Shown here piece after piece: positions 2,221-60,835 of a stretch of 64,000 nucleotides of DNA (the first letter of the stretch is position 1; every line of letters starts with the position of its first letter). The translations under genes and the position numbers were made by a program. Origin of the DNA: Escherichia coli (GTDB taxonomy: Bacteria; Pseudomonadota; Gammaproteobacteria; Enterobacterales; Enterobacteriaceae). A model generated the notes under the pieces. That model saw only the letters and a program-made list of their open reading frames with translations, was not told the origin of the DNA and did not search any database. The DNA is taken from assembly GCF_016903815.1 (NCBI RefSeq), contig NZ_CP069973.1, one strand, 5' to 3'.

Positions 2221-2792
2221 CGTAACTTACTCATTATTCTTACATTGACGACTAAGCTGCGGGCAAAGTAACGCCTTTCCGGGTGTGAACCGATGGCCTC
2301 GTGTCTAGTCGCGTCGCCAACCTCACGGTTATCGTCAGCTCAAAGAGGCGCAGAGTGTCGGTTGCCCGTTTTTCATGCGGAAAAACAGCGCAATTATCAA
2401 AGAAACAGACTGGGTATTACTCTCCAGAAATATTTCCATCTACCGGTAAGGACTGCAACCCGCAGCCCGCTAACTGCCTGAAAGATCAATACGTCTTACG
2501 CCATTGCTGCGTGGATGATCGGTCGGGCAAAATGGGTTATTCCGTAAAATTTCTTGTTTTAACAAGGATGGACACGGAAACGGCCTCATTATTCCACTGC
2601 AAGCCTTGTTATAGCAAGATGACTTTTACCATTTATCACCCGCTTACTCACAGTTTTTTCACTTCTTGCTGGTGATTGGTTTAATAACCATCAATAAAGT
2701 GATCACGTAGTGAAGTAATAAGGTGCAAAACTAAATATAAGCATAGAAAAATGAGTGGCGCGAATCCTGTTGACTAATTAGAATCGCCCACC
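2221..2792. promoter_or_regulatory. rne 5' leader and divergent rne/rluC promoter region
   Basis: 570-bp ORF-poor gap between divergent rne and rluC starts; a long structured autoregulatory rne leader is established for this locus. Confidence 0.5.
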
Positions 2793-3863: not shown

Positions 3864-4448
3864 CTATCCCATCAGCGGGTTTTTCCCTTCCCGACGTAAC
3901 ATCTGACACAGCGCGATTAGCGGTAAACCAACCAGCGTGTTAGGATCACGCCCCTCTAAACGCTCAAACAGCGTAATGCCAAATCCTTCACTCTTAAAGC
4001 TACCCGCGCAGTGCAGGGGATGCTCTTTACGCACGTAATTATCAATCTCCGCCTCGCTCAGGTGACGGAAATGGACGTCAAAAGGCTCCACTTCTGTTTG
4101 TAGATGCCCATTCGCCGAATTAAACAACGCCAGTCCAGTATAGAAGGTGACGATATTGCCGCTGGCTTTGCGTAATTGCAGACGGGCATTTTCTTCCGTT
4201 AACGGTTTACCGGTGATTTCGCCATCAAGAACACATACCTGGTCTGAACCAATAATTAAATGATCCGGATAACGTGACGCCAGAGATTGCGCTTTTTCTT
4301 GTGCCAGTCGAAGCACCAACTGTCGCGGTGATTCGTCGCTGCGTGGGGTTTCGTCGACCTCTGGTGCTGCACATTCAAAAGAGATTTGCAGTTTTTCCAG
4401 AAGAGCGCGACGCCAGGGCGAGGTGGAGGCTAAAATAAGTTTAGGCAT
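3864..4448 (-). CDS. yceF: Maf-like nucleotide pyrophosphatase YceF
   Basis: ORF 3864-4487; start placed at internal Met ([14 protein letters not shown]) giving 194 aa. Confidence 0.88.
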
Positions 4449-4634
4449 ATTTTTTTCCATCAGATATAGCGTATTGATGATAGCCATTTTAAACTATGCG
4501 CTTCGTTTTGCAGGTTGATGTTCGTTATCAGCACTGAACGAAAATAAAGCAGTAACCCGCAATGTGTGCGAATTATTGGCAAAAGGCAACCACAGGCTGC
4601 CTTTTTCTTTGACTCTATGACGTTACAAAGTTAA

Positions 4635-11081: not shown

Positions 11082-11794
11082 TTGTGCACAGAAAACCCCC
11101 AGCTAGGCTGGGGGTTCCGGAAAGCTTTCAGCTTTAAGCCAGTTATTAAAACCCCTTTTGATTTGTTAAAACACCTTGCGGTCTGGCAACTGCAAGTGTC
11201 AAACAAGAAATCAAAAGGGGGTCCCAATGGGGAACGAAAAGAGCTTAGCGCACACCCGATGGAACTGTAAATATCACATAGTTTTTGCGCCAAAATACCG
11301 AAGACAGGTGTTCTACAGAGAGAAGCGTAGAGCAATAGGCAGTATTTTGAGAAAGCTGTGTGAGTGGAAAAGTGTACGGATTCTGGAAGCTGAATGCTGT
11401 GCAGATCATATCCATATGCTTGTGGAGATCCCGCCCAAAATGAGCGTATCCGGCTTTATGGGATATCTGAAAGGGAAAAGCAGTCTGATGCTTTACGAGC
11501 AGTTTGGTGATTTGAAATTCAAATACAGGAACAGGGAGTTCTGGTGCAGAGGGTACTACGTCGATACGGTGGGTAAGAACACGGCGAAGATACAGGATTA
11601 CATAAAGCACCAGCTTGAAGAGGATAAAATGGGAGAGCAGTTATCGATTCCCTATCCGGGCAGCCCGTTTACGGGCCGTAAGTAACGAAGTTGGATGCAA
11701 ATGTCAGATCGTGTGCGCCTGTTAGGGCGCGGCTGGTAAGAGAGCCTTATAGGCGCATTTGAAAAACCTCCGGCTATGCCGGAGGATATTTATT
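11082..11794 (+). mobile_element. IS200-type insertion sequence, copy 1
   Basis: 713-bp block identical to 27980-28692; left-end hairpin cccccagctaggctggggg; single Y1 transposase gene; absent from this intergenic site in E. coli K-12 as I recall it. Confidence 0.9.
11227..11685 (+). CDS. tnpA: IS200/IS605-family Y1 (HUH) transposase TnpA
   Basis: 152 aa from internal Met with RBS aaaggggg; HUH motif HIHMLVEIPP; ORF-track 5' extension judged non-coding. Confidence 0.9.
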   Translation: MGNEKSLAHTRWNCKYHIVFAPKYRRQVFYREKRRAIGSILRKLCEWKSVRILEAECCADHIHMLVEIPPKMSVSGFMGYLKGKSSLMLYEQFGDLKFKYRNREFWCRGYYVDTVGKNTAKIQDYIKHQLEEDKMGEQLSIPYPGSPFTGRK

Positions 11795-27981: not shown

Positions 27982-28692
27982 GTGCACAGAAAACCCCCAG
28001 CTAGGCTGGGGGTTCCGGAAAGCTTTCAGCTTTAAGCCAGTTATTAAAACCCCTTTTGATTTGTTAAAACACCTTGCGGTCTGGCAACTGCAAGTGTCAA
28101 ACAAGAAATCAAAAGGGGGTCCCAATGGGGAACGAAAAGAGCTTAGCGCACACCCGATGGAACTGTAAATATCACATAGTTTTTGCGCCAAAATACCGAA
28201 GACAGGTGTTCTACAGAGAGAAGCGTAGAGCAATAGGCAGTATTTTGAGAAAGCTGTGTGAGTGGAAAAGTGTACGGATTCTGGAAGCTGAATGCTGTGC
28301 AGATCATATCCATATGCTTGTGGAGATCCCGCCCAAAATGAGCGTATCCGGCTTTATGGGATATCTGAAAGGGAAAAGCAGTCTGATGCTTTACGAGCAG
28401 TTTGGTGATTTGAAATTCAAATACAGGAACAGGGAGTTCTGGTGCAGAGGGTACTACGTCGATACGGTGGGTAAGAACACGGCGAAGATACAGGATTACA
28501 TAAAGCACCAGCTTGAAGAGGATAAAATGGGAGAGCAGTTATCGATTCCCTATCCGGGCAGCCCGTTTACGGGCCGTAAGTAACGAAGTTGGATGCAAAT
28601 GTCAGATCGTGTGCGCCTGTTAGGGCGCGGCTGGTAAGAGAGCCTTATAGGCGCATTTGAAAAACCTCCGGCTATGCCGGAGGATATTTATT
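27980..28692 (+). mobile_element. IS200-type insertion sequence, copy 2
   Basis: Identical to 11082-11794 by eye, same orientation. Confidence 0.9.
28125..28583 (+). CDS. tnpA: IS200/IS605-family Y1 transposase TnpA
   Basis: Same 152-aa protein as copy 1. Confidence 0.9.
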   Translation: MGNEKSLAHTRWNCKYHIVFAPKYRRQVFYREKRRAIGSILRKLCEWKSVRILEAECCADHIHMLVEIPPKMSVSGFMGYLKGKSSLMLYEQFGDLKFKYRNREFWCRGYYVDTVGKNTAKIQDYIKHQLEEDKMGEQLSIPYPGSPFTGRK

Positions 28693-43074: not shown

Positions 43075-44193
43075 TCAAATAACCAACTTAACCCATTCCT
43101 GACCTCGAGTATCGTTATAGCGATCGGTGGTTGCCTGGACTTTATGTCCTAGTAATGTTTTTGTATCGATACCCTGTGCACGGTACAGCCGTTCTGATAG
43201 AGAGCGTTGTTCATGAAATGTTGGCGGAGTTTTTCCTGCTGGTGGAATTATCCCAGCCAGATCCCGTGCTTTGGCAAAGTAGTCGCTCAGGTTGTCTTTA
43301 CTCATCGGCTTCGGTTGTTTCTGGTGCCGACTATGGATTAGATATGGACTTAATATTCTGTCTCGGCACCCATCAATAACTTCTTTTAACGTTATCCCAA
43401 TGGCATCACAGCGTAGTGTAAGCGGTAACGCCAGACGCATTCCGGTTTTTCCCTGGGTGATATGCAAGTGTTCGTTCCACACATCTGAAAAACGCATGTG
43501 GCAAATGTCATCACGGCGCTGACCAGTAACAATCGCAAGAAGCATTGCGTTACGGATAAAGTGTTTTTCAGGCGTTGCATTGTAAATTTTTTGCCAGTCT
43601 TCCATGGTGAGCCTGGCTCTGGTTACTTTAGGGATCGGTTTACGGGTAGCCTCCGGAGGATTCCATCCAGGAGGAACTTCCCCTGCATGCTGTGCTTCTT
43701 TATAAATATCAACCCATAATCCACGATTTACTCTCGCTGTGCTGACCATGTCTTTATCCAGCCACTCATCCAGTATTAATGCAAAGTCTCTTACTTCCAG
43801 TTCTTTCAATGGGTGGTTTCCCAGACGGGAAACCAGGTATGCAGCCATTCGAGTTTTTTCTTTGTGAGTTGTAGCTGCAATATCTCCATTTTTCAGTCGC
43901 GTGTCCTGTATTTTCAGATATCGATCAACCCATGCCTTTAATCTGATACCCCGACGTTTTGTTGCTGACGGACTTTCATCAATTTTGCGCATGAAATATT
44001 CAGCTTCTGCTGCAGCTATTCGCTGATTGGCTGTGGAAGCGATTTTTTCTGCCTTACCTTTGTCTGTTCCGAGTCCGTGAAATTTTCCAGTCACAGGATT
44101 TTTATACTGGTAGTAAACTCTGCCAGTTCTGCGATCAAACTTTTCGTAAAGACCGGCTACGTCAGTGCTGTTTTTTCGTGGCCTCGGTGACAT
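43075..44193 (-). CDS. int: Lambda-family tyrosine integrase
   Basis: 372 aa; C-terminus HEQRSLSERLY...LGHKVQATTDRYNDTRGQEW matches the lambda Int catalytic R-H-R-Y region. Confidence 0.92.
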   Translation of the reverse strand: MSPRPRKNSTDVAGLYEKFDRRTGRVYYQYKNPVTGKFHGLGTDKGKAEKIASTANQRIAAAEAEYFMRKIDESPSATKRRGIRLKAWVDRYLKIQDTRLKNGDIAATTHKEKTRMAAYLVSRLGNHPLKELEVRDFALILDEWLDKDMVSTARVNRGLWVDIYKEAQHAGEVPPGWNPPEATRKPIPKVTRARLTMEDWQKIYNATPEKHFIRNAMLLAIVTGQRRDDICHMRFSDVWNEHLHITQGKTGMRLALPLTLRCDAIGITLKEVIDGCRDRILSPYLIHSRHQKQPKPMSKDNLSDYFAKARDLAGIIPPAGKTPPTFHEQRSLSERLYRAQGIDTKTLLGHKVQATTDRYNDTRGQEWVKLVI

Positions 44194-44492: not shown

Positions 44493-46949
44493 TTAAAAAT
44501 CAGCCTGACTCGGGATCAGTTTTTGCCAGATAACTGAAACGTATTTTGCCTGGTAACGGGCGTCATCAAGTGCATTATGGCGCTCACCTTCGAATGGAAT
44601 AGCCGTTCTGGCATCGAAGTCTATGGCTTTCCCCAGCTCAACGATTGTGCGTACATCGCGATCGTTGTAGTAACGCCACGGGCAGGGGATCCCCTGCCGT
44701 TCGTATGAACGGCGCAAAATCGTGTTGTCGAAGTTGGCTCCATTTCCCCAGACCTGAACAAAAAATTCGCCGGAGTTTTCGTCGATAAATTCCCGCAATT
44801 GTAACAGTGCATCATCTAACGGGATTTCATCGGTCATAATGGCAGATTGCGCTTCGCGTGATTGCTTAAGCCACCATTTAATGGTGTCCCGATCAATGAC
44901 TCCGCCAGCAGTTTCCAGATCGATAGTCTTACTAAATTCCGGTCCCATATCTCCGGTTTGCGGATCGAAAAATATTGCACCTATTGAGATAATCGGGGCA
45001 TCTGGATTTTTTCCCATGGTTTCAAGGTCGATCATTAGATGGTCACACGTCCCGCTGGTGGATGTGCCTTTATGATGACCGTTCACCTTAACTGAGTGAT
45101 CTGTCGCCTCGCCAGTTTCACTATCGCTATCGTGATGCTGATTGCCGCCAGGGTTCTCCTTGTGTGGATGTTCAGTGCCTTCCATTTCCTCCGGATCATT
45201 TTCCTGAACTTCAACCTGATTCTCTTCATTGAATGTTTCCTGGTATGTTGCGTCGCCCATCACCGCGCCACAATCAGGGCAGTTGCCGCCGCCGGTCTGA
45301 CCGCAGGCGGTGCAGATCTTTTCCGGTTCCTGTTGCACTACTGGTTCAGGTTGTTTCGTTTCTGGCTCGTTTTGTAACGCATTTGGGCTGTTTTGTTCCG
45401 CTTTCTGGCCGTTCTGTTCCGTTTCTTGCTGGTTCTGGTTCACAGAATCGCGGGTTTCCATCCCCTTGACCCATTTCGGATCATTCGGGTCGCTAATCCC
45501 TGCAACAAATTCTCCGCGAGAGGCCGCAAGCAACTTATCGGCGTCAGGCTGGCTGATATTGGCTGCCTGCATAATTTTGTTTACTTCGTCAGCGGTAACT
45601 TTTACCTGATTAACCGGATCTATCTGTGCCTGAGTATCCAGCGATTGCGTGTCCTGGCGATGTTCAGTTGTATTCGGCTCCATTGCTTCAGTCGTTGCCT
45701 GTTCATCTGCCATTGCGTCAGACGGTTGTGATTTTTCCTCATTATTTTTTTCTTCTTCTGTTTCGCGTTCAGCAGCCAGTTCGCGGTTAACTTCTTCCAG
45801 GATATCTTTTTCCGGTGTATGTCGTGCAGCAGCGAGAGTTTCCTCGGTAGGGTTCTCGTGATCAGTTTCCGTCAAATAGGCGTTGATATACCCCTGAAGG
45901 CGTCCCGGGTAGTGATAAAATTCAGGGTGTGCGCTTCGGATAAGTGCAAAAATAGCGGCGCGGGAATAATCCAGGATACCCGGGATTGCGCGAAGTGCTG
46001 CGGACCATTCTTTGAACGGACTTTCTTTCTTCCGGACGACTTCTTTTGCGCGACGATAAACGCTGCCCGGAATTTCATAAATATTAAAATCCATCGGAAG
46101 TGTGGCCGCTGCAATCTCCACATCCAGCGTATCGAAGGTGTGTACTAAATTCGGATTGCGATCGGTTTTGTTCCCTCCACCGGCATTAGCACCGGAAGCC
46201 GTGCGGGTGATGCGTGAAACACGATTTCCTTTCATCCACTCTTTTGTCAGCAGACCGCGATCGGTGTAGTCAGCGCCCAGGTATGCTTCGAAAAAAGCAG
46301 TCATCAGTCCCAGGTCTGAATTACCAGGATTAGGGAAAACTTTGTCCGTGTCACGAACCAGTTTGTGGAGATCGCGAATTTCCAGCGGTTCGAGTTGCGC
46401 TGCTTTATTTGAGATGGCCAGCGCGGTAACGGCGGGAAGTTTTTCATCCTGTGCGTTATGTAATGTGCGCAGTTCGTCCCGCGAAACGTGTGTGATCGGT
46501 TTTTCGCTGCCGTGCTGTGCCAGCCATCGAACAGGCAGAATCTGACCTGAAACCGGCAGGAGCATGTTCTCCTCAATCTCAGCCATGTCTTCGCCGTTGA
46601 CGTTGGTATTGTCAGTGCTGGCTGGTTTATCCTGAACAGAGGGCGAGGGCGCGATAAGTACCATTGTGATACCATCTTCACCGCCCTTTTCGTATCGGTT
46701 GCAGAATTCGGTATCAAACACGCCTTCCGGAGGAAGGTCATTCACAACGGGTAAATGGACGCGAACAGGTTTTTTAAAATCCTCTTTGTCAAATCCGGCA
46801 TCGTCCATTGCGACAACACCGCGTGATATTGCAACCGATAATTTTTTTGCTGTGCGCCAGTAAAAACCGCCTTTAATTCCAAGACGTTTTCTGATTTTGT
46901 CATTTTTGGCTTCGTAATATAGTGCAATTTCTTCTTTATCAGTGCTCAT
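44493..46949 (-). CDS. Phage exonuclease with C-terminal DEDDh (DnaQ-like) 3'-5' exonuclease domain
   Basis: 818 aa; C-terminal motifs IDLETMG and HNALDDARY; long acidic low-complexity middle region; C-x2-C...C-x2-C zinc ribbon. Confidence 0.75.
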   Translation of the reverse strand: MSTDKEEIALYYEAKNDKIRKRLGIKGGFYWRTAKKLSVAISRGVVAMDDAGFDKEDFKKPVRVHLPVVNDLPPEGVFDTEFCNRYEKGGEDGITMVLIAPSPSVQDKPASTDNTNVNGEDMAEIEENMLLPVSGQILPVRWLAQHGSEKPITHVSRDELRTLHNAQDEKLPAVTALAISNKAAQLEPLEIRDLHKLVRDTDKVFPNPGNSDLGLMTAFFEAYLGADYTDRGLLTKEWMKGNRVSRITRTASGANAGGGNKTDRNPNLVHTFDTLDVEIAAATLPMDFNIYEIPGSVYRRAKEVVRKKESPFKEWSAALRAIPGILDYSRAAIFALIRSAHPEFYHYPGRLQGYINAYLTETDHENPTEETLAAARHTPEKDILEEVNRELAAERETEEEKNNEEKSQPSDAMADEQATTEAMEPNTTEHRQDTQSLDTQAQIDPVNQVKVTADEVNKIMQAANISQPDADKLLAASRGEFVAGISDPNDPKWVKGMETRDSVNQNQQETEQNGQKAEQNSPNALQNEPETKQPEPVVQQEPEKICTACGQTGGGNCPDCGAVMGDATYQETFNEENQVEVQENDPEEMEGTEHPHKENPGGNQHHDSDSETGEATDHSVKVNGHHKGTSTSGTCDHLMIDLETMGKNPDAPIISIGAIFFDPQTGDMGPEFSKTIDLETAGGVIDRDTIKWWLKQSREAQSAIMTDEIPLDDALLQLREFIDENSGEFFVQVWGNGANFDNTILRRSYERQGIPCPWRYYNDRDVRTIVELGKAIDFDARTAIPFEGERHNALDDARYQAKYVSVIWQKLIPSQADF

Positions 46950-47425: not shown

Positions 47426-47983
47426 TCAACAATGAATTTTTAGCAATTGCTCCACAGTCATATTTTTAATTGCGCTCCGGTTTACAAGAGTCCATCCTTG
47501 TTTCTCCAGATAAAACCGGAAGGTATCCAGGGTGCAGACCATTGCGCCGTCAGGAACGGTTTCAGTGAATTTGATATTGCCGTGTTCGTCGAGACGGATA
47601 ACCAGGGTGCGTCCGTCCCCGTGAATCATTTTGTCGGGAGACGGGGCGTTATTCTGGCGCAGTTCTTCCTCCATGCGATCGAACTCAGCGATGTAGGCTT
47701 CTTTGAAAGTTGCGGCTTTTTTACCTGTGAACCCCATCACCAGGAAAACGAAGCCGTTTTTGGTGATTTGGTACATGGGGCGTTTTTCGCCTTTGGCGTC
47801 GGTGTAGGTAACGGGCGTAAAATTGCGCTCGTTAAAATCTTCAGAGCATTCTAGCGTTTCAATTTTGCGCAGAACGTCCTTGTGCATTTTGCGGAAGAAC
47901 TCTGCAACCGCAACAGACGTAGTGACAGCGCGACCATTTTCGATGGTTACGTCAGGGTGAGAAAGGGTAGGGATAGTAGCCAT
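47426..47983 (-). CDS. rha: Rha-family phage regulatory protein
   Basis: Start at internal ATG with RBS gagg (MATIPTLSHPDVTIENGRAVTTSVAVAEFFRKMHKDVLRKIE); the ORF-track 5' extension crosses a terminator-like hairpin. Confidence 0.7.
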   Translation of the reverse strand: MATIPTLSHPDVTIENGRAVTTSVAVAEFFRKMHKDVLRKIETLECSEDFNERNFTPVTYTDAKGEKRPMYQITKNGFVFLVMGFTGKKAATFKEAYIAEFDRMEEELRQNNAPSPDKMIHGDGRTLVIRLDEHGNIKFTETVPDGAMVCTLDTFRFYLEKQGWTLVNRSAIKNMTVEQLLKIHC

Positions 47984-48463
47984 AATGGCAGCCTCTTGGT
48001 TGAGTATTAATAACTCACCACCAAGGTTTTCCACGACCATAAGGGTGGTGAGGCGTACAGGGGTGGAAATACCGGTCAACCAAGAATCCGGCCAGCCTTG
48101 CAGCTGCCCTGCACGCCCCACCATAATCTGAATGTGGCTGTGCTTGACGCATAAAAAAACCGCCTGAGCGCGGTTATGCGCTTGATTGAATTCCGGGTTT
48201 CCACGCCCGGCACCCGTTTTATGAGGTGCAGGTGCACTATAATTCCACCCGTTCTGGTTTTCAATAGCTACATTCAACATTTTCTCTTACCTTTCATCAC
48301 CGAAGTGAACTTTGTTGATGCGGTGCCTGGTGCCTCCAGGTGACGTTAACCAGTTAACAATTAACGCCGGATACAGAGAATCCACCCATAACACTGTTTT
48401 TGGTTTTAACTGTTCCGCGTGCGCTTAGCCGCATTCACCGCATCACAAAATTCACTTTAAAAA

Positions 48464-48515
48464 GGGTGGCAGAGCAGTCACGGAGTAGAACTGATGCCAC
48501 CAAAGACTACACATG
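48464..48515 (-). ncRNA. dicF: DicF-like small RNA
   Basis: Minus-strand ggtggcatcagttctactccgtgactgctctgccaccc plus U-tail matches recalled DicF 3' two-thirds at about 34 of 38 nt; 5' end approximate. Confidence 0.6.
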
Positions 48516-51814: not shown

Positions 51815-52268
51815 GCAGCAAATCCGACAGGTCTGCCGCCAGTGCATGGACCGCTGCCGGGCGGGTGAAACATGGCCTCCGGACCTGGCTGAGTTTGTGG
51901 CGCTGATTTCAGAAAGCGGGGCCAATCCATTTGGCCTGACGGTGGATGCTGTGATGGAGGAGTACCGCCGCTGGCGTGATGAGTCCTGGCGATATGACGG
52001 AAGCGACAAATATCCGTGGCCTCAGCCTGTGCTGTACCACATCTGCCTCGAAATGCGTACCAGAGGGATTGAGCGCCAGATGACGCAGGGTGAGTTAAAA
52101 CGACTTGCAGAACGGCAACTGACGAAATGGGCAAAGCATGTTGGTAACGGGATGAGTGTTCCGCCAGTGCGACGACAACTGGAAGGGGCGAAACACCCGC
52201 AAGGGCCAACGCCAATTGAACGGCTGAAACAGGAATACGAACGCCGGAAGGCAGCTGGTTTTATTTGA
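51603..52268 (+). CDS. Lambda P-like replication protein (helicase loader family)
   Basis: LPPDLAEFVALI...VMEEYRRWRDESWRYDGSDKYPWP parallels lambda P (LPNVSELVDMVYEYCRKRGLYPDAESYPWK); start ambiguous because of the 212-nt overlap with the O-like gene. Confidence 0.55.
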   Translation: MQQHQVAPHHGQFRKFGQHVSSGNVKTDLSATETVWKLWELMGEVYSNRWTQKNGAAPSKLWIAQIGAMTEQQIRQVCRQCMDRCRAGETWPPDLAEFVALISESGANPFGLTVDAVMEEYRRWRDESWRYDGSDKYPWPQPVLYHICLEMRTRGIERQMTQGELKRLAERQLTKWAKHVGNGMSVPPVRRQLEGAKHPQGPTPIERLKQEYERRKAAGFI

Positions 52269-53087: not shown

Positions 53088-53480
53088 ATGGCAAAAGTAT
53101 TTACACCAGAAGAGCGGGAAGAAGTGAAGGCGCGCATTGTGGAATTCGTGCGCCTGAGCGGACGAGAAACTTTTCGACAACTGGCAGATAAAACGGGTGT
53201 CAGTAAGACCGCTATTCGTCGTTTATCTGGTGCGCTTGCGGCCAGTGGTGATGTCTGGCTCTCTGGTTGCGGGGTATTTCCATCAGAGCAGGCGTATCGC
53301 GTATGGCGTAAGACACCGGAGAAGGCTGCTGACCCGACACTGATTCGAAAGTTACCTGACGGAGAAATACGTCGTTACAACAGACGGCAGAACATAATTT
53401 GTCGTGAGTGCCGCCAGAGCGAAGTCATGCAGCGTGTGCTGGCGTTCTATCGGGGAAACTTTCAGGAGGTGATGGAGTGA
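53088..53480 (+). CDS. Hypothetical HTH protein
   Basis: ATG 53088 preceded by ggagg; FRQLADKTGVSKTAIRRL HTH-like. Confidence 0.5.
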   Translation: MAKVFTPEEREEVKARIVEFVRLSGRETFRQLADKTGVSKTAIRRLSGALAASGDVWLSGCGVFPSEQAYRVWRKTPEKAADPTLIRKLPDGEIRRYNRRQNIICRECRQSEVMQRVLAFYRGNFQEVME

Positions 53481-53482
53481 GG

Positions 53483-53773
53483 GTGAGAGTTTATATTGCC
53501 GGTCCAATGACGGGATATGAAAATTTCAACCGTGAGGCGTTTCACAAGGCGGAAGAGGAACTGAAACGGGAAGGGCATACCGTCTTAAACCCGGCAGTAC
53601 TTCCGGACGGGCTGACACAGCCGCACTACATGGATATTTGCATGGCAATGATTCGTTGTGTGGATGCGATTTACATGCTGAATGGCTGGCAGCGGTCAGC
53701 GGGCGCTAAGGCAGAGCTGGCACTGGCGGAGAAACTGGGGCATGCGGTGATTTATCAGGAGGTGGCTCAATGA
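53483..53773 (+). CDS. DUF4406-like (nucleoside 2-deoxyribosyltransferase-like) protein
   Basis: GTG start after ggag; VRVYIAGPMTGYENFN...DAIYMLNGWQRSAGAKAELALA pattern. Confidence 0.55.
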   Translation: MRVYIAGPMTGYENFNREAFHKAEEELKREGHTVLNPAVLPDGLTQPHYMDICMAMIRCVDAIYMLNGWQRSAGAKAELALAEKLGHAVIYQEVAQ

Positions 53774-54231
53774 GAGAGGTTAACTATGAGGCGCTTCGTG
53801 AGGCAGCACAAAACTATCAGTCGACGCTGGCGTGGTATCAGGCTATCCCGGACAGCCCAAATGCTGAACGGGATTGTGATGCGGCTCTTGCTGCGTTTAA
53901 GCGTCACATCCGTCATCGGGAAGCGGATATTATCGCTGATTTGCTGGATGGACTGGAAGAAGCAAAATCACAACTCAACGAGCAGCGTGAGTATTACGAA
54001 GGCGTTATCTCTGATGGGAGTAAGCGTATTGCTGAACTGGAAGCGCGGGAAGTTCAATTACCGACTCGCTACGACCTTCGATATGGACACCCGATAAATG
54101 CAGATGAGCGACATGTCATGATACCTAAAGAAAATGGCAGTTGGCTTTACCTGATTGACCTAGAACACGCATTACGCGTCGCTGGCATTCGCATCAAAGG
54201 AGAGGAGCATGGAAATAAAACCAGAGGATGA
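53770..54231 (+). CDS. Hypothetical phage protein
   Basis: 153-aa ORF, overlapping stop/start with neighbours. Confidence 0.45.
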   Translation: MREVNYEALREAAQNYQSTLAWYQAIPDSPNAERDCDAALAAFKRHIRHREADIIADLLDGLEEAKSQLNEQREYYEGVISDGSKRIAELEAREVQLPTRYDLRYGHPINADERHVMIPKENGSWLYLIDLEHALRVAGIRIKGEEHGNKTRG

Positions 54232-55069: not shown

Positions 55070-55435
55070 ATGGCACTGACGAAAAAACAACGTGCAGAAT
55101 TGCGCATGAAGTTTGGCGGTCGCTGTGCTTATTGCGGCTGTGAACTTGGCGAAAAGTGGCATGCAGACCATGTAAAACCGGTCATTCGTTTTAATGGAAA
55201 TATGCTTCACCAGGAACGTGACGATATATCCAACATGGTTCCGGCATGCCACCCATGCAATCTGCACAAGCATTGCAGTAGCCTGGAAGACTATCGGCGA
55301 ATTATCAGTGATGGTCGTCGTGAATTCCTTGCGTCCGGGAAAGGCAAAGCGCTGGTTCGTATGGGATTGGTTGAAATGAAATCTGACCCGGTTGTGTTCT
55401 GGTTTGAAAAATATCAAGAAGGGGCTACAGCATGA
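55070..55435 (+). CDS. HNH endonuclease
   Basis: 121 aa; CAYCGC...HADHVKP...N...CHPCNLHKH HNH motif. Confidence 0.8.
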   Translation: MALTKKQRAELRMKFGGRCAYCGCELGEKWHADHVKPVIRFNGNMLHQERDDISNMVPACHPCNLHKHCSSLEDYRRIISDGRREFLASGKGKALVRMGLVEMKSDPVVFWFEKYQEGATA

Positions 55436-56799: not shown

Positions 56800-56976
56800 A
56801 TAACTGCGGGTGCTTGAGGCTATCTGTCTCAGGCATGAACACCAAAAGGCAGATAGAGAAAAGCCCCAGTTAACATTACGCGTCCTGCAAGACGCTTAAC
56901 ATTAATCTGAGGCCATATCTATGCGACACATAGAGATTAGCCTCTTACGGACCGAAAGGTCAAGGAGAAGCAGGCT
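56800..56976. promoter_or_regulatory. hok mRNA leader with mok-like upstream ORF and expected antisense Sok region
   Basis: 19-codon upstream ORF (ATG 56921) whose TGA overlaps the hok ATG; hairpin gcgtcctgcaagacgc; Sok position inferred, not observed. Confidence 0.35.
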
Positions 56977-57132
56977 ATGAAGCAGCAAAAGGCGATGTTA
57001 ATCGCCCTGATCGTCATCTGTTTAACCGTCATAGTGACGGCACTGGTAACGAGGAAAGACCTCTGCGAGGTACGAATCCGAACCGGCCAGACGGAGGTCG
57101 CTGTCTTCACAGCTTACGAACCTGAGGAGTAA
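56977..57132 (+). CDS. hok: Hok/Gef-family type I toxin
   Basis: Hand translation MKQQKAMLIALIVICLTVIVTALVTRKDLCEVRIRTGQTEVAVFTAYEPEE (51 aa), essentially the HokD/RelF sequence as recalled. Confidence 0.85.
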   Translation: MKQQKAMLIALIVICLTVIVTALVTRKDLCEVRIRTGQTEVAVFTAYEPEE

Positions 57133-60478: not shown

Positions 60479-60835
60479 TTGTGGTAAATGGGCGGCTGGT
60501 GGGTGTGGTGGTTGTTGCTTTCCCGTTGCTGAAAAAGAAAACGCCAGACTGTTAGCCGGGTATCAGTTAGCGGGAGAAATTTTTAAATACTTCACAATTC
60601 AGGCGGTTGACTGTTGTCTGGTTTGCGGGGAGTTTGTTAAAAGAAACTGGCATGGTGAATCCCCCTGTGCGGAGGGGCAATCAGCGAGTAGGTATATGGG
60701 ATAATCGCGGATTCAGGTGCTGGTACTGAATTCACCGGGAGGCACCCGGCACCATGCAATGGCACATAGCGCCACTCTCCAGCCCCTCTCCGGAGGGGCT
60801 GTTTATATTGATTTTGTCAGATGTGAGTAAACTCC

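Follow-up and report, generated by a model that had tools for sequence, protein, structure and literature searches.

The DUF4406 gene studied here encodes a 98-residue prophage protein for which a fold of the nucleoside 2-deoxyribosyltransferase (NDT) superfamily was confirmed at the level of the predicted structure. Its conserved residues give, in our judgement, an even chance that the protein is a catalytically active minimal N-glycosidase with Glu80/Tyr6 chemistry, in which Ser74 would bind the 5'-phosphate of a nucleoside or deoxynucleoside monophosphate (NMP or dNMP). Databases already list both this exact protein and its family, to which no function is assigned. The features discussed below are collected in Table 1; the window is the whole stretch of 64,000 nucleotides of Escherichia coli DNA that was analysed.

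The DUF4406 protein is encoded by a plus-strand open reading frame with its TGA at 53771–53773. The translation of this frame, which runs MRVRVYIAGPMTGYENFNREAF...GWQRSAGAKAELALAEKLGHAVIYQEVAQ, was matched to Pfam DUF4406; the 98-residue product starts MRVRVYIAGPMTG, ends YQEVAQ, and is identical to RefSeq WP_001266130.1, a 98-residue 'DUF4406 domain-containing protein'. In-frame GTG codons were found at 53477 and 53483. A reading of this DNA from sequence alone (the sequence-only reading) had placed a GTG start in the preceding stop region, at 53483. Its wording was right, as the start codon shares bases, within GTGA, with the stop codon of the DUF977 gene before it, but the coordinate was 6 nt too far downstream, GTG 53483 being 3 nt past that stop. 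The PGAP annotation of E. coli strain 7/2 starts the gene at 53477. Comparison of 78 IMG/VR loci also favours 53477 over 53483, because the first GTG was kept in all E. coli-type loci (L013–L063) and the second was replaced by GTC in 10 and by GTA in 2 close relatives. Gene calls gave the 98-residue form for at least 1000 contigs, compared with 11 for the 96-residue form. Both GTG codons are produced by a 6-nt tandem duplication, which adds Arg-Val to the N-terminus; the duplication is recognised because short-form relatives read GTGAGG(G/A)TTTAT, without the extra 6 nt, and the long form was also found among relatives. The longest open reading frame, starting at GTG 53408 and coding for 121 residues, was rejected; it shares 73 nt with the DUF977 gene, and its N-terminus was found in no homolog. 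Pairwise dN/dS values against 59 distinct relatives were 0.08–0.2, showing that the DUF4406 gene is a functional coding gene under purifying selection.

Table 1. Coordinates of the DUF4406 gene, its predicted active-site codons and the neighbouring features in the window.
Feature	Coordinates	Strand	Evidence or remark
Integrase-sized ORF, marks left end of prophage	43075-44193	-	Size only
Exonuclease ORF, marks left end of prophage	44493-46949	-	
DUF977 gene, winged-HTH-like N-terminus	53088..53480	+	Pfam PF06163, E 2.4e-41; PHROG 142; PGAP start
AGGAGG, Shine-Dalgarno-like, 7 nt 5' of GTG 53477, within 3' end of DUF977 gene	53464..53469	+	Read from sequence
GTGA overlap, DUF4406 GTG start sharing bases with DUF977 TGA (53478-53480)	53477..53480	+	Read from sequence
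6-nt tandem duplication GTGAGG GTGAGA, yielding both in-frame GTGs	53477..53488	+	Sequence and relatives
DUF4406 gene, 98 aa	53477..53773	+	Pfam PF14359, PGAP annotation, AF2 model, fold matches, dN/dS
Tyr6 codon, aligned with the triad Tyr of the NDT superfamily (DNPH1 Y24)	53492..53494	+	Y 130, F 16 of 147
Cys55 codon, aligned with the triad Asp/Asn (DNPH1 D80; Asn in TbNDT; DmtZ Asn77)	53639..53641	+	
Ser74 codon, 6 residues before Glu80, aligned with the phosphate-binding Ser (DNPH1 S98, BcmB, BlsM)	53696..53698	+	147/147
Glu80 codon, predicted nucleophile, aligned with DNPH1 E104 and the motif Glu of NDT, BcmB and BlsM	53714..53716	+	145/147
Ead/Ea22-like gene, ATG overlapping the DUF4406 stop (ATGA 53770-53773)	53770..54231	+	

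Assignment to DUF4406, which the sequence-only reading had proposed, was borne out by a match to PF14359 over the full domain (129.7 bits, E 5.7e-38, cut-off 22), in which residues 4–93 correspond to profile positions 2–91 of 91. The family signature Y-I-A-G-P-M-[TS]-G, N-R-x2-F, N-P-A-x-L-P-x-G-L, Y-M and G-W-x2-S-x-G-A-x2-E, taken from an alignment of 70 homologs and counts over 147, was present. PHROG 355, named 'nucleoside 2-deoxyribosyltransferase', was matched with E 3e-48. Sub-threshold Pfam matches were to the related families DUF1937, DUF7768 and Nuc_deoxyrib_tr (PF05014), the last with 14.4 bits, below its gathering score of 28.8. No NCBIfam model matched the product, a single-sequence search with it against PDB sequences gave no match, and PADLOC returned no defence family at E<=0.01, retron and Thoeris NDT/TIR-like effectors included.

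The DNA was 100% identical to many E. coli chromosomes, and of 5426 complete E. coli genomes, 1209 (about 22%) carried a copy at 80% identity or more. At E<=1e-3, the family numbered 12,253 representatives of clusters formed at 50% identity, and 526 phage records contained it. A literature search for DUF4406, PF14359, WP_001266130 and DUF1937 gave passing mentions only and no functional study. Fused domains were sought in ten longer homologs of 239–358 residues, in which only DUF4406 was found; their extensions are uninformative or gene-calling artefacts. ZoeJ gp54 and MD8 gp42 carry extra sequence without a Pfam match. Arthrobacter phage Kepler gp54, Lizalica gp27 and Gordonia phage Nadeem gp65 are deposited under the names 'deoxycytidylate deaminase', 'MazG-like pyrophosphatase' and 'hydrolase'; such records were rejected as DUF4406 fusions, being single-domain DUF4406 proteins with names that are annotation noise. 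The biochemically characterised DmtZ of Gordonia phage Ghobes (gp53, L105:42692-43177) is likewise deposited as 'deoxyuridine triphosphatase'; all of these names are inconsistent or wrong.

The prophage in the second part of the window is lambdoid and Rac/Qin-like, and its early rightward operon contains the gene. Along this operon, P is followed by DUF1627, DUF977, DUF4406 and the Ea22-like gene, with hokD, RusA and Q further on, so that the gene stands between P and Q in the nin-equivalent interval, in agreement with the nin region named in the sequence-only reading. An identical prophage of E. coli 7/2, annotated by PGAP, carries in its left part an exonuclease, dicB, a Rha-family regulator, a cI-like repressor, Cro and YdaT; it continues with a DnaT-like O, P, DUF1627, DUF977, DUF4406, the Ea22-like gene and an HNH endonuclease, and its right part holds hokD, rem, DUF968, RusA and Q. 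In a simple consensus scan, no promoter-like or terminator-like site was found beside the DUF4406 gene, the nearest being at 52243–52259, about 1.2 kb upstream. The HNH endonuclease open reading frame of the same operon (55070–55435, plus strand) gave weak PADLOC matches to PtuB of Septu (E 2.8e-8), which probably represent generic HNH similarity. In Salmonella, Edwardsiella and some E. coli-type prophages, the gene directly or nearly directly 3' of DUF4406 was often DUF4752, another uncharacterised small early gene.

Rfam searches placed DicF and sok in positions matching the prophage. On the minus strand of the immunity-left region, a C4 antisense RNA (48041–48128), isrK (48153–48229) and DicF (48464–48515) were found, the first two inside an open reading frame (47426–48280) that is the counterpart of the Rha-family regulator of E. 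coli 7/2. On the plus strand, the sok antitoxin RNA (56808–56979) adjoins hokD and the STnc100 sRNA (60621–60810) lies just 3' of Q. The rne 5' UTR element (2245–2581, minus strand) and the SraB sRNA (4442–4610, plus strand) identify the left part of the window as E. coli chromosome in the neighbourhood of rne. Two plus-strand STnc490 sRNA matches in the chromosomal part (11094–11217 and 27992–28115), both of 146.1 bits and about 17 kb apart, suggest a repeated element.

The gene preceding DUF4406 had been described as coding for a helix-turn-helix (HTH) protein to which DUF4406 is translationally coupled. The description as an HTH protein is plausible, as the DUF977 product gave sub-threshold matches to many HTH families over residues 15–60 and weak matches to Lrp/AsnC proteins in the PDB; the name of its PHROG family is 'Ren-like exclusion protein'. 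The stop/start overlap is real and conserved. A 4-nt NTGA overlap was also found in Salmonella (ATGA, after DUF977), in Edwardsiella (GTGA, after an unrelated protein of 129 residues) and in Vibrio (GTGA, after an unknown protein), and ATGA and GTGA overlaps recurred among the IMG/VR relatives. This geometry allows translational coupling of DUF4406 with the upstream gene. DUF977 was the upstream neighbour only in Escherichia/Salmonella-type prophages, and in other lineages a DnaB-like helicase, a Dam-like methylase or a 72-residue protein stood 5' of DUF4406. Because the same 4-nt overlap occurs with differing upstream genes, the geometry reflects phage gene packing and not a functional pairing with the HTH protein.

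To describe the fold, an AF2 model was built on 70 diverse homologs (pLDDT 94.8, pTM 0.87). The predicted elements were beta1 (residues 4–8), alpha1 (15–31), beta2 (35–37), alpha2 (48–59), beta3 (64–67), alpha3 (75–87) and beta4 (90–93), which form a four-stranded, Rossmann-like alpha/beta domain of minimal NDT-superfamily type. When the model was compared with the PDB by Foldseek, NDTs came first (2a0k, E 3e-5, TMq 0.75; then 6qai and 8pqt), followed by MilB, DNPH1 and BcmB. A HMMER profile of the 70 homologs found the Trypanosoma brucei NDT among PDB sequences with E 3e-4, and the N-glycosidases BcmB, BlsM and MilB with E 0.3, 0.45 and 2, respectively. These results uphold the NDT-related fold that the sequence-only reading had suggested. 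Many phage 'NDT' and DUF4406 models were found among the BFVD viral models, with TM scores of 0.8–0.94. TIR NADases were also among the structural neighbours, the closest fold matches being NDT, MilB and DUF1937. The chain ends after beta4 at residue 98, and the matched structures have 125–165 residues; the C-terminal strand and extension of the NDT superfamily are absent from the model. In NDTs, a C-terminal extension from the partner subunit completes the active site.

Conservation was counted by column in a set of 147 homologs that were each less than 62% identical to the query. In addition to the residues in Table 1, F22 (147/147), G9 (146/147), Y51 (143/147) and M58 (141/147) were invariant or nearly so, followed by W71 (137/147) and N18 (133/147). 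Position 12 was T or S in 139 homologs (T in 91, S in 48), and position 19 was R or K in 132 (R in 121, K in 11). The Cys55 column held C in 101, D in 20, A in 8, T in 8 and G in 5 homologs, that is, Cys in 69% and Asp in 14%. In HMMER alignments, S74-x-G76-A77-x-x-E80 was aligned to S-P-G-T-H-[IV]-E of the CMP N-glycosidases BcmB and BlsM, and the nucleoside-specific TbNDT and LmNDT read D-C-G-T-A-F-E over the stretch from S74 to E80.

A weak hhalign alignment (E 0.05) placed Y6, C55, S74 and E80 on Y24, D80, S98 and E104 of human DNPH1. The numbering of the DNPH1 sequence used agrees with that of the published enzyme, whose catalytic triad consists of Y24, D80 and E104; the covalent intermediate is formed by E104, and the 5'-phosphate is coordinated jointly by S98 and S128' (PMC10603095). 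NDTs hold the 5'-OH by Asp or Asn and the monophosphate hydrolases have small uncharged residues there, and the middle residue of the triad is Asn in TbPDT and DmtZ (PMC12884076). A second weak hhalign alignment, to DmtZ (E 0.15), matched C55 with Asn77, S74 with a Thr and E80 with Glu103. Thus, three weak, independent alignments (TbNDT, DNPH1 and DmtZ) agree in putting C55 at the acid position. Judged by these alignments, the Glu nucleophile and the orienting Tyr of the NDT superfamily both appear to be present, the third member of the triad, Asp or Asn, appears to be replaced by Cys55, and the Asp that binds the nucleoside 5'-OH in the PF05014 NDTs appears to be replaced by the invariant Ser74.

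In the proposed mechanism, Tyr6 would orient Glu80 for attack on C1' of a (deoxy)ribose 5'-phosphate, and the base would leave as a covalent glycosyl-enzyme intermediate forms, in the manner of DNPH1, MilB and DmtZ. Activity as an N-glycosidase on (deoxy)nucleoside 5'-monophosphates is favoured because Ser74 stands where true NDTs have Asp. The 5'-phosphate would be held by Ser74, with probable help from Thr/Ser12 and Arg19 of the beta1–alpha1 region, and the substrate would then be a nucleoside monophosphate and not a nucleoside. Phospho(deoxy)ribosyl transfer is a possible alternative activity. With Cys in place of the acid, acid catalysis may be absent or different. We speculate that the family loop N-P-A-x-L-P-x-G-L-x3-Y-M, between beta2 and alpha2, may take over base or lid functions. 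A role as a nucleotide-modifying or nucleotide-binding factor, as given in the sequence-only reading, is suspected from the residues and the fold, and a speculative role for the enzyme would be to adjust or clean the nucleotide pool in early phage replication. A more specific proposal, which we regard as doubtful, is that these proteins form a distinct minimal clade of the NDT superfamily with a Tyr-Cys-Glu centre and no C-terminal lid, hydrolysing a specific NMP that is non-canonical, damaged or defence-made and acting as a pool sanitiser or counter-defence factor. If this were true, about one E. coli strain in five would carry such a factor.

The same evidence has to be weighed for other functions. 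A genuine nucleoside 2-deoxyribosyltransferase, which swaps bases between deoxynucleosides for salvage, is what the name of PHROG 355 and the annotation of many phage homologs, SEA-PHAGES records included, imply, and such enzymes are the best fold and sequence matches in the PDB and have the triad Tyr and Glu in common with DUF4406. We nevertheless consider this function quite unlikely. The PF05014 score is only half of its cut-off, the Asp that holds the 5'-OH in NDTs corresponds to an invariant Ser, the C-terminal third of NDTs is absent (98 residues versus 137–165), and the names themselves are homology-derived and inconsistent, with hydrolase, MazG-like and dCMP deaminase used for one family. 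Given that Ser replaces the 5'-OH-binding Asp and Cys replaces the acid, the label 'nucleoside 2-deoxyribosyltransferase' is probably inaccurate for DUF4406.

The lack of the usual acid Asp and of the C-terminal active-site extension could also point away from catalysis altogether. The protein is very small, it is encoded among accessory early genes with variable neighbours, and its structural neighbours include TIR-like proteins, all of which would suit a non-catalytic nucleotide binder acting as a sponge or a sensor, or serving as a decoy by pairing with NDT/TIR-like effectors of the host, for example those of retrons and Thoeris, and blocking them. Near-invariant Glu, Tyr and Ser residues that are catalytic in relatives are more typical of an enzyme, however, no PADLOC model was matched and no partner gene was conserved across the family; we rate the binder as unlikely. 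A glycohydrolase that needs no acid catalysis would retain the Glu and dispense with the acid, as in the Glu-only chemistry of TIR proteins, and would act on NMN, NAD+-type or other cationic-base nucleotides. Where the triad acid would stand, 86% of homologs indeed had Cys, Ala, Thr or Gly while the Glu was kept, TIR NADases are structural neighbours, and Ser74 would suit the phosphate of NMN. This function is purely inferential, the closest folds were those of NDT, MilB and DUF1937 rather than TIR, and no locus examined had a context of NAD metabolism, and we hold it to be very unlikely.

In the phage loci examined, which covered Klebsiella phage phiKO2, Vibrio phage Her, Arthrobacter, Gordonia, Mycobacterium and Rhodococcus phages and Pseudomonas phage MD8, DUF4406 was always located within early, replication or nucleotide-metabolism modules. 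No partner gene was conserved across the family among these phages, and no link to NAD metabolism was seen in any locus. Distant homologs from metagenomes added nothing on gene context, their contigs being short and without annotation. Dam-like genes stood directly 5' of DUF4406 in the loci of two relatives (L088 and L091), a methylase stood directly 3' of it in Gordonia phage Nadeem (gp66), and methylases were also found near it in Kepler, phiKO2 (L097, Gp52), ReqiDocB7 (L102, gene036) and a Brachyspira prophage (PMC8845278). This recurrence of DNA (adenine) methylase genes is anecdotal and may be a coincidence of early-region location. Two BFVD neighbours with 33–41% identity, A0A6J5LQ71 (216 residues) and A0A6J5S4N9 (462 residues), are named 'dATP/dGTP diphosphohydrolase N-terminal domain-containing protein' (DUF5664), an assignment by name only. 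The DUF5664 domain converts dNTPs to dNMPs. Going by these database names, the two proteins may be DUF4406-DUF5664 fusions and would then give a Rosetta-stone hint at a dNMP substrate.

As it stands, the gene matters little, being a routine member of a catalogued family that is identical to a RefSeq protein and present in hundreds of E. coli genomes. The family is large, with more than 500 sequenced phages, and is named inconsistently as NDT, hydrolase, MazG-like or dCMP deaminase, and a functional assignment for one member could name many phage genes and correct their annotations. The residue pattern described here is a modest addition in the form of a concrete, testable prediction.

When compared with known systems, the protein did not differ from Pfam DUF4406 and WP_001266130.1; the sequence is identical and all family-invariant residues are present. 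DUF1937, represented by PA1492 of P. aeruginosa (1t1j, 125 residues), is a structural neighbour that forms a separate Pfam family and is also uncharacterised in function. The NDTs (PF05014; T. brucei 2a0k, L. mexicana 6qai and C. thermalis 8pqt), which gave the best PDB matches in both sequence and Foldseek searches, have the Y-I-A-G-P motif and the Glu in common with DUF4406. DmtZ of Gordonia phage Ghobes, a dAMP hydrolase and deoxyribose-5-phosphate transferase (PMC12884076), is like DUF4406 a phage-encoded member of the NDT superfamily, and it acts on a dNMP. However, it has 161 residues and is tied to Z-genome (PurZ0) biosynthesis, which is lacking in the prophage studied. DmtZ was considered as a characterised DUF4406 member and rejected, as it is not DUF4406 by Pfam.

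The 2'-deoxynucleoside 5'-phosphate N-hydrolase DNPH1/Rcl (8qhr, 2khz) has the catalytic D80 where DUF4406 has Cys55. Its helical extension provides S128' from the partner subunit, and DUF4406, which is about 45 residues shorter, is without this extension; sequence similarity between the two was not significant on its own. MilB, BcmB and BlsM, which are CMP or hydroxymethyl-CMP N-glycosidases of about 160 residues, have extra C-terminal elements, matched DUF4406 with E values between 0.3 and 2, and showed no counterpart of its NPA-LP-GL-x3-YM loop in the alignments. BcmB, BlsM and DNPH1 are like DUF4406 in having a Ser six residues before the Glu.
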